Source: Picochlorum sp. SENEW3 (Eukaryota). Taken from it: a DNA stretch of 64,000 nucleotides. Below the pieces are notes generated by a model that was given only the letters and a program-made list of their open reading frames with translations, made no database searches and was not told where the DNA came from. The stretch is from positions 124,001 to 188,000 of the forward strand of contig CP120453.1 in assembly GCA_034226945.1 (NCBI GenBank). The letters run 5' to 3'. A program made the translations under genes and the position numbers. Shown piece by piece: positions 46,717-47,016 of the stretch (position 1 is the stretch's first letter; each line of letters starts with the position of its first letter).

Positions 46717-47016
46717 TCATACGGTATCTACCTTTTGCTTTTTAATCTGACCCACGGTCAATTCTTGCTCCTGTTCATCGGCATCTGTCCCGTCTTCCTC
46801 ATCGTTTTCCTCCAGTTCTGCTTGTTGCCCTTGTATGACGCCGGCAAAGTACTCTGTCACGCCGTCCTTCATCTTCCCAACTGCAGTATAGAGATTTTTT
46901 GTACCATCAGATTGTATCAATGGTATCTGTATGTCGAATGCGTCATGGTTGGGTATTTGAATGCTGGCTCGAAGCATGGGCGTCGAGGAATCTTTCTCTT
47001 TCTCTGGCGGCGACAT
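46717..47016 (-). CDS. Small acidic protein, candidate KEOPS subunit GON7 homologue
   Basis: 99 aa. Helix LYTAVGKMKDGVTEYFAGVIQG, acidic tail and C-terminal KKQK. Similarity judged by eye against the recalled human GON7 sequence. Confidence 0.55.
   Translation of the reverse strand: MSPPEKEKDSSTPMLRASIQIPNHDAFDIQIPLIQSDGTKNLYTAVGKMKDGVTEYFAGVIQGQQAELEENDEEDGTDADEQEQELTVGQIKKQKVDTV

Follow-up and report, generated by a model that had tools for sequence, protein, structure and literature searches.

The GON7-like locus

The subject of this analysis is a small open reading frame (ORF) at 46717..47016 on the minus strand of a 64,000-nucleotide stretch of the Picochlorum sp. SENEW3 genome (contig CP120453.1, positions 124,001 to 188,000), the whole of which is called the window below. 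An initial annotation, made from the DNA letters and their translation, read it as a 99-amino-acid protein and proposed that this is a green-lineage GON7, the fifth subunit of the KEOPS complex; the translation was confirmed. KEOPS is responsible for the universal tRNA modification t6A; its fifth subunit sets the oligomeric state of the complex and is the product of a human disease gene (Galloway-Mowat syndrome). The evidence presented below shows that the ORF is a gene and suggests that its product is a GON7-type protein.

The GON7-like gene lies within a gene-dense eukaryotic stretch. A convergent Usp-family gene (46130-46687, plus strand) ends 30 bases from it, and the 3' untranslated regions (UTRs) of the two genes must overlap because their stops, at 46687 and 46717, are only that far apart. 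A related metagenome contig (L001) keeps the same arrangement with a gap of 18 bases. On the other side, the stop of a PPIP5K/Vip1-like gene is located 346 bases upstream of the GON7-like start codon, and the promoter and 5' UTR of the GON7-like gene are presumed to lie in this spacer. The PPIP5K/Vip1-like gene is present as two ORFs, 47363-50305 and 50416-50859, both on the minus strand; the upstream one carries a PPIP5K2_N domain and the downstream one a histidine-phosphatase domain, presumably with a short intron between them.

The placement of this DNA in the green lineage, made in the initial annotation, fits what is seen for the plastid-type acyl-ACP desaturase encoded in the window. Its named nearest relatives are proteins of Chlorophyta (55-70 % identity), including Micractinium, Auxenochlorella, Chlorella, Chlamydomonas, and Volvox, and of a few land plants. 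As the relatives are chlorophyte, the label "green lineage" is justified.

Anatomy of the protein

AlphaFold2, run on an alignment of four sequences, produced a full-length model with two strands (residues 14-19 and 27-32) and a helix starting at residue 39. Confidence was low, with a predicted local distance difference test (pLDDT) value of 57 overall and of about 50 past residue 60. A core model of residues 10-72, which includes just the first nine residues of the tail, gave the same strands and helix at a pLDDT of 67. The two short beta-like segments noticed at the outset are thus borne out as a predicted hairpin, and the helix, the acidic tail, and the terminal KKQK were likewise recovered (Table 1).

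The helix is amphipathic: its hydrophobic moment of 0.378 was reached by 13 of 2000 shuffled sequences. Aspartate and glutamate make up 12 of the 23 residues of the tail, which has a net charge of -12. Among 13 distinct sequences of the family, conservation is highest in the hairpin region, where 17 of 21 positions (residues 14-34) are invariant, while in the helix it peaks in GKMKD and YFAGVIQG.

Table 1 Features of the candidate GON7-like gene and its upstream spacer (positions in the window)
Feature	Position	Strand	Basis or remarks
Whole coding sequence, 99-residue candidate GON7-like protein	46717..47016	-	Single exon; TGA stop at 46717-46719
Predicted beta-hairpin, residues 14-32 (strands 14-19 and 27-32)	46921..46977	-	AlphaFold2 models, invariance, structural alignment
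Amphipathic helix, residues 39-63, TKNLYTAVGKMKDGVTEYFAGVIQG, resembling the human GON7 helix	46828..46902	-	Alignments, AlphaFold2, moment test
Acidic tail, residues 64-86, predicted disordered	46759..46827	-	Composition, low pLDDT, alignment to the acidic stretch of human GON7
KKQK basic patch, residues 92-95	46732..46743	-	Invariant in 13 of 13 sequences
Upstream intergenic region, GON7-like start codon to PPIP5K-like stop	47017..47362	-	Far more variable than the ORF, many indels in related DNA

An expressed and conserved gene

The minus-strand ORF is a real, expressed gene. In a transcript assembled for a marine eukaryote in culture, a complete ORF encodes a protein 99 % identical to the product of this gene. 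This transcript-derived ORF is the sole expression evidence; the four runs of related DNA that were also compared consist of contigs, probably of DNA, and are therefore uninformative on expression. The exact 99-residue protein is present in the NCBI nr database.

Relatives were sought among 5.8 billion proteins by word-indexed searches and among 1.84 billion representatives by profile. They form three clusters of close kin with 13 distinct sequences of 97-101 residues that are 73-99 % identical. The word-indexed searches yielded three proteins out of four candidates and, when repeated, again three out of 107. A metagenome scan gave 274 pattern matches, of which one was a true relative, the L001 copy. 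At the sequence level the protein is therefore the orphan that it was first described to be, with just these three clusters of close relatives in the two collections. A transcript ORF and close relatives do exist, the lack of which the initial annotation had named as counting against its proposal.

The ORF is short, has no family match above threshold, and has its stop just 30 bases away from that of the convergent Usp gene, all of which would suit a chance reading frame in the intergenic stretch that separates two real genes. The chance of this is negligible, and the idea is already contradicted by the data. Apart from the 99 % identical complete ORF in a transcript, the same ORF is found in relatives down to the 73 % identical copy on the L001 contig, where it lies in the same convergent layout with a Usp gene. 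Between the window and L001, the proportions of nonsynonymous (pN) and synonymous (pS) differences are 0.145 and 0.336, respectively, and the ratio of the corresponding rates (dN/dS) is 0.36. The length variants among the 13 sequences are all in-frame changes of two codons in the tail. Finally, none of the 12 indels listed for contigs from the four runs of related DNA (with five further ones beyond those listed) falls inside the ORF, while ten are located in the upstream spacer.

Sequence similarity to GON7

A scan of Pfam (24,736 families) with the 99-residue protein returned PF15387 (DUF4611), the family of human GON7, as the sole family match, with an E value of 0.0028 and a score of 18.2 bits; the curated gathering cut-off of this family is 32.1 bits. 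The alignment is colinear and pairs residues 35-89 with profile positions 24-81 of 96. PF15387 was matched by all four full-length proteins scanned (E values of 0.0028, 0.00079, 0.055, and 0.01, with 18.2, 20.0, 14.1, and 16.4 bits) and was the best family in three of them. In one relative, TrbI (E 0.0014) stood above PF15387; this match and one to Temptin_C (E 0.12) were dismissed as noise, being absent from the other relatives. The Pcc1 family, PF09341, was not matched in Pfam at E values up to 10.

A search of the 177,635 distinct sequences of the PDB led to the same protein. Human GON7 (6GWJ chain D) came first with an E value of 0.0085, the next match having one of 0.24. With a profile of four sequences the E value of 6gwj_D was 5.3e-4 and that of the next match 1.3, and for the most divergent relative GON7 was the sole PDB match (E 0.032). 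Counted by hand on the 6GWJ_D alignment, 12 of 28 residues are identical to human GON7 over algal residues 37-64, the helix region, which is far above the 12-19 % given for human and yeast Gon7 in the accessible text of PMC6722078. The initial annotation had named the absence of a GON7 profile match as evidence against its proposal; GON7 is the best match in two libraries, yet one that stays below the Pfam cut-off. The helix and the acidic stretch that it gave for human GON7 are seen in the alignment to 6GWJ chain D, while the terminal "KRPK" that it gave was not seen in any of the results.

Structural comparisons

The full-length model, searched with Foldseek, had 6gwj_D as its first match (E 1.9). 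The wide search and the second look with VIA gave only long-helix matches for this model, with Z scores of 3.1 or lower and no GON7 row. The core model was more informative. Among 350,542 chains, Foldseek put two human GON7 chains at ranks 1 and 2, namely 9fl9_E (E 0.74, TM-score 0.50, root-mean-square deviation (rmsd) of 3.2 over 48 columns) and 6gwj_D (E 1.2); chains of yeast Gon7 took ranks 6, 13, and 29. In the second look with VIA, the core model matched 4wxa_D (Z 3.0), 9fl9_E (Z 2.8), 4wx8_D (Z 2.6), and 6gwj_D (Z 2.1). The alignment with 9fl9_E comprises 48 of 50 residues at an rmsd of 2.8 and places model positions 4-51 on chain positions 1-50, with the hairpin on the hairpin of human GON7.

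VIA was also run over 48,161 representative chains without preselection by Foldseek, and three KEOPS entries then appeared at ranks 1, 8, and 12. These are 9fl9_D, from a human KEOPS cryo-electron microscopy entry (residues 60-139, Z 4.0, rmsd 1.9, 51 residues aligned), 8k20_F, a 77-residue chain of an Arabidopsis thaliana KEOPS entry (Z 3.5), and 4wx8_A, from the yeast Gon7-Pcc1 entry (Z 3.3). Judging from chain length and residue range, as the tool gives entry titles only, these chains would be LAGE3, PCC1, and Pcc1, respectively. That small KEOPS subunits top two different structure searches with predicted models, each score being non-significant alone, is hard to ascribe to chance. The ranking fits the structural likeness of Gon7/C14 to Pcc2/Pcc1 described in the accessible text of PMC9889334.

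The slightly higher Z scores of the putative Pcc1 chains (4.0-3.3, against 3.0-2.1 for Gon7 chains) could also be explained if the algal protein were a Pcc1-derived mini-paralogue resembling Pcc2, or an independently recruited Pcc1 cap, with the role of GON7 and without descent from the animal GON7 gene. PMC9889334, in its accessible text, raises both Pcc2 descent and convergence for Gon7/C14 itself. Such an origin is, however, very unlikely here. Z differences under 1 are ties, Pfam gave no Pcc1 match at E values up to 10, and it is animal GON7, not Pcc1, that the sequence specifically matches. The β1-α1 part of the Pcc1 fold is, moreover, missing, since only 13 residues precede the hairpin.

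The ESM Atlas was used as a source of leads only; it states that shuffled proteins reach a first match of 0.8 or more one third of the time. In its feature search, GON7/Gon7 clusters were four of five among the matches listed, with scores of 0.86-0.82. Its structure search had a DUF4611 cluster at the top (TM-score 0.62) and one of fungal Gon7 in third place, and with residues 1-66 DUF4611 was again first (TM-score 0.71).

Beside GON7, the Atlas places two Streptophyta clusters of "hypothetical proteins," by features as well as by structure, one of 91 residues with 101 members and one of 109 residues with 107 members. These may be the land-plant counterpart of GON7.

Weighing the GON7 identity

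Human GON7 is the best sequence match of the algal protein, and Gon7 chains and putative Pcc1 chains of KEOPS are its best structural matches. The probability that the ORF encodes a GON7-type, Pcc1-capping fifth subunit of the chlorophyte KEOPS (t6A) complex is put at roughly 0.65. This identity is supported by several weak but agreeing tests and is not proven. Homology to GON7, binding to Pcc1, membership of KEOPS, any effect on t6A, and an age beyond the opisthokonts are all things that we infer.

A number of results weigh against it. All four full-length proteins score under the PF15387 cut-off, and the protein is therefore filed as a candidate remote homologue and not as an annotated member of the family. 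Residues 1-66, 35-70, and 64-99 each lacked a Pfam match, and residues 1-66 and 64-99 each lacked a PDB match. The match thus requires the helix and the acidic tail together, and part of the score must come from the low-complexity tail; for the helix alone, a rough BLOSUM62 estimate by hand arithmetic gives an E value of about 4-20 against the PDB. The fungal Gon7 family, PF08738, was not matched in Pfam at E values up to 10. At E values of 0.001 or lower, the four-sequence profile found just its own cluster among the 1.84 billion representatives, a search in which a 20-bit relative cannot surface, and therefore no chain of intermediates leads to animal GON7. Neither did the word-indexed searches of 5.8 billion proteins reach beyond the close relatives to animals, plants, or other algae. 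Two residues of the "VTE" match, T54 and E55, are replaced by A and G in the clade of 101-residue proteins and are thus not kept within the genus. On the structural side, all scores are non-significant (Foldseek E values of 0.74-5.8; VIA Z scores of 4.0 or lower, with helix-only ties), and the VIA scores of Gon7 chains are tied with those of helix-only ribosomal rows. The AlphaFold models, with pLDDT values of 57 and 67, are of low confidence, and the ESM Atlas feature search with residues 1-66, from which the tail is removed, gave no GON7 row. Lastly, hidden Markov model searches outside the opisthokonts have yielded only two Fagales sequences, nested within fungal Gon7, according to the accessible text of PMC9889334.

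These results keep alive the main rival to a GON7 identity (a Pcc1-derived or convergent cap being a minor one): the resemblance would be accidental. The protein would then have no relation to GON7 and be a small, acidic, disordered product limited to its lineage, such as a nuclear chaperone-like protein or an adaptor peptide. Helices with an acidic tail behind them are common among proteins, all scores are marginal, the sequence signal vanishes once helix and tail are separated, and detectable relatives are limited to three close clusters. The Atlas scores, moreover, lie in the range (0.8 or more) that shuffled proteins attain one third of the time. Even so, an accidental resemblance is considered unlikely. 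The same family was retrieved from two libraries, of 24,736 families and 177,635 chains, at database-corrected E values of 5e-4 to 3e-3. The tail by itself matches nothing, and composition alone is therefore no full explanation of the GON7 match. The N-terminal hairpin, which is outside the sequence match, is still predicted at the right place, and GON7, Gon7, and putative Pcc1 chains of KEOPS still rank highest with the largely tail-less core model. The GON7 identity proposed in the initial annotation is thus partly supported: the best match in two libraries and the shared layout speak for it, while the scores below the Pfam cut-off and the non-significant structural matches do not.

Proposed mode of action

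By analogy with the structures of human GON7/LAGE3 and yeast Gon7/Pcc1, the GON7-like protein would be largely disordered when alone. [quoted passage not shown] The GON7-like protein would in this way cover the homodimerization surface of Pcc1. With that surface occupied, it is proposed, KEOPS would be kept as a linear five-subunit monomer and not form a Pcc1-bridged dimer.

Other genes in the window

No KEOPS subunit, Pcc1 included, was found by the Pfam scan among the 42 ORFs scanned in the window. A DEAD-box helicase gene is split over two ORFs on the minus strand, 33629-34603 and 32246-33433, one with the DEAD and the other with the Helicase_C domain, most likely as a consequence of an intron. 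The minus-strand ORF 41692-44409 specifies a 906-residue protein in which lamin-tail domains are combined with a CBM56-like module and a CotH kinase domain, a mix that is unusual for an alga. Another minus-strand ORF, 61877-63910, encodes a 678-residue protein of DUF285 repeats, a family labeled "Mycoplasma protein of unknown function" (E 7.7e-138).

Evolutionary significance

Gon7/C14 is stated to occur in fungi and animals only (accessible text of PMC9889334). Arabidopsis has neither a GON7 nor a Pcc2 orthologue, and the recombinant four-subunit Arabidopsis KEOPS is active and dimerizes through PCC1, as described in the accessible text of PMC11077089. The literature searches, judged by their listings, turned up no GON7 described from a plant or an alga, in agreement with these two sources and with the initial annotation, which had held GON7 to be unreported in plants and algae.

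It is a tentative proposition, judged somewhat less probable than even, that GON7/C14 is no opisthokont invention and was already present in the ancestor shared by animals and green plants, if not before. If true, five-subunit KEOPS complexes would be present in green algae and probably in land plants, where the Streptophyta clusters of roughly 91-109 residues, possibly those of the At1g47820 protein, would be the subunits concerned. In that case, the native Arabidopsis complex would not be the Pcc1-bridged dimer seen for recombinant four-subunit KEOPS, and the animal-type sequence would be ancestral and fungal Gon7 divergent.

GON7 is a known kind of protein; what would be new, and of real interest to those who work on KEOPS and t6A, is a GON7 in the green lineage. 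Such a protein, if genuine, would place the origin of the subunit one major eukaryotic split earlier, provide a concrete candidate for plant and algal KEOPS, and add a data point on the two origins considered for Gon7, descent from archaeal Pcc2 and convergence. Should the likeness be due to chance, the locus would merely encode a lineage-restricted small acidic protein.

Comparison with known KEOPS subunits and plant candidates

Human GON7/C14orf142 (PF15387; 6GWJ chain D, 9FL9 chain E) is the top match of the algal protein in Pfam, in the PDB sequence search, and in Foldseek. It consists of a hairpin (M1-S20), a helix (G25-P50), and an acidic, disordered C-terminal half (accessible text of PMC6722078). 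The algal protein, also of about 100 residues, is predicted to have the same colinear order of N-terminal β-hairpin, amphipathic helix, and acidic disordered C-terminal half. It differs from human GON7 by an extra N-terminal extension of 13 residues, and the sequences of the two hairpins are not detectably similar. Binding to Pcc1 and a function in t6A formation, which characterize GON7, are putative for the algal protein.

The C-terminal part of Pcc1/LAGE3 is the same unit as the algal hairpin with a long helix packed on it. Archaeal Pcc2 caps Pcc1 as Gon7 does, and Gon7/C14 is structurally akin to Pcc2/Pcc1 (Daugeron et al. 2023, PMC9889334, accessible text). Unlike Pcc1 and Pcc2, the algal protein is without the first strand and helix of the fold, has no Pfam Pcc1 match, and carries a long acidic tail.

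In plants, Q9FZG2 (At1g47820) and O64818 are among the proteins pulled down with Arabidopsis KEOPS that are GON7-sized and partly disordered (Zheng et al. 2024, PMC11077089, accessible text). Q9FZG2, an intrinsically disordered candidate of 10.67 kDa, resembles the algal protein, as far as its description in the same text goes, in having a core of two antiparallel strands joined to a helix.

Yeast Gon7 (PF08738; 4WXA, 4WX8) shares with the algal protein the hairpin-plus-helix core, which in yeast becomes ordered on Pcc1, and the fungal Gon7 cluster occurs in both Atlas lists obtained with the algal protein. The yeast protein exceeds human GON7 in length by about 20 residues and is only 12-19 % identical to it (PMC6722078, accessible text). 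The algal protein does not match PF08738 and shows 7-16 % identity to yeast Gon7 in the structural alignments; it is much closer to the animal than to the yeast type.
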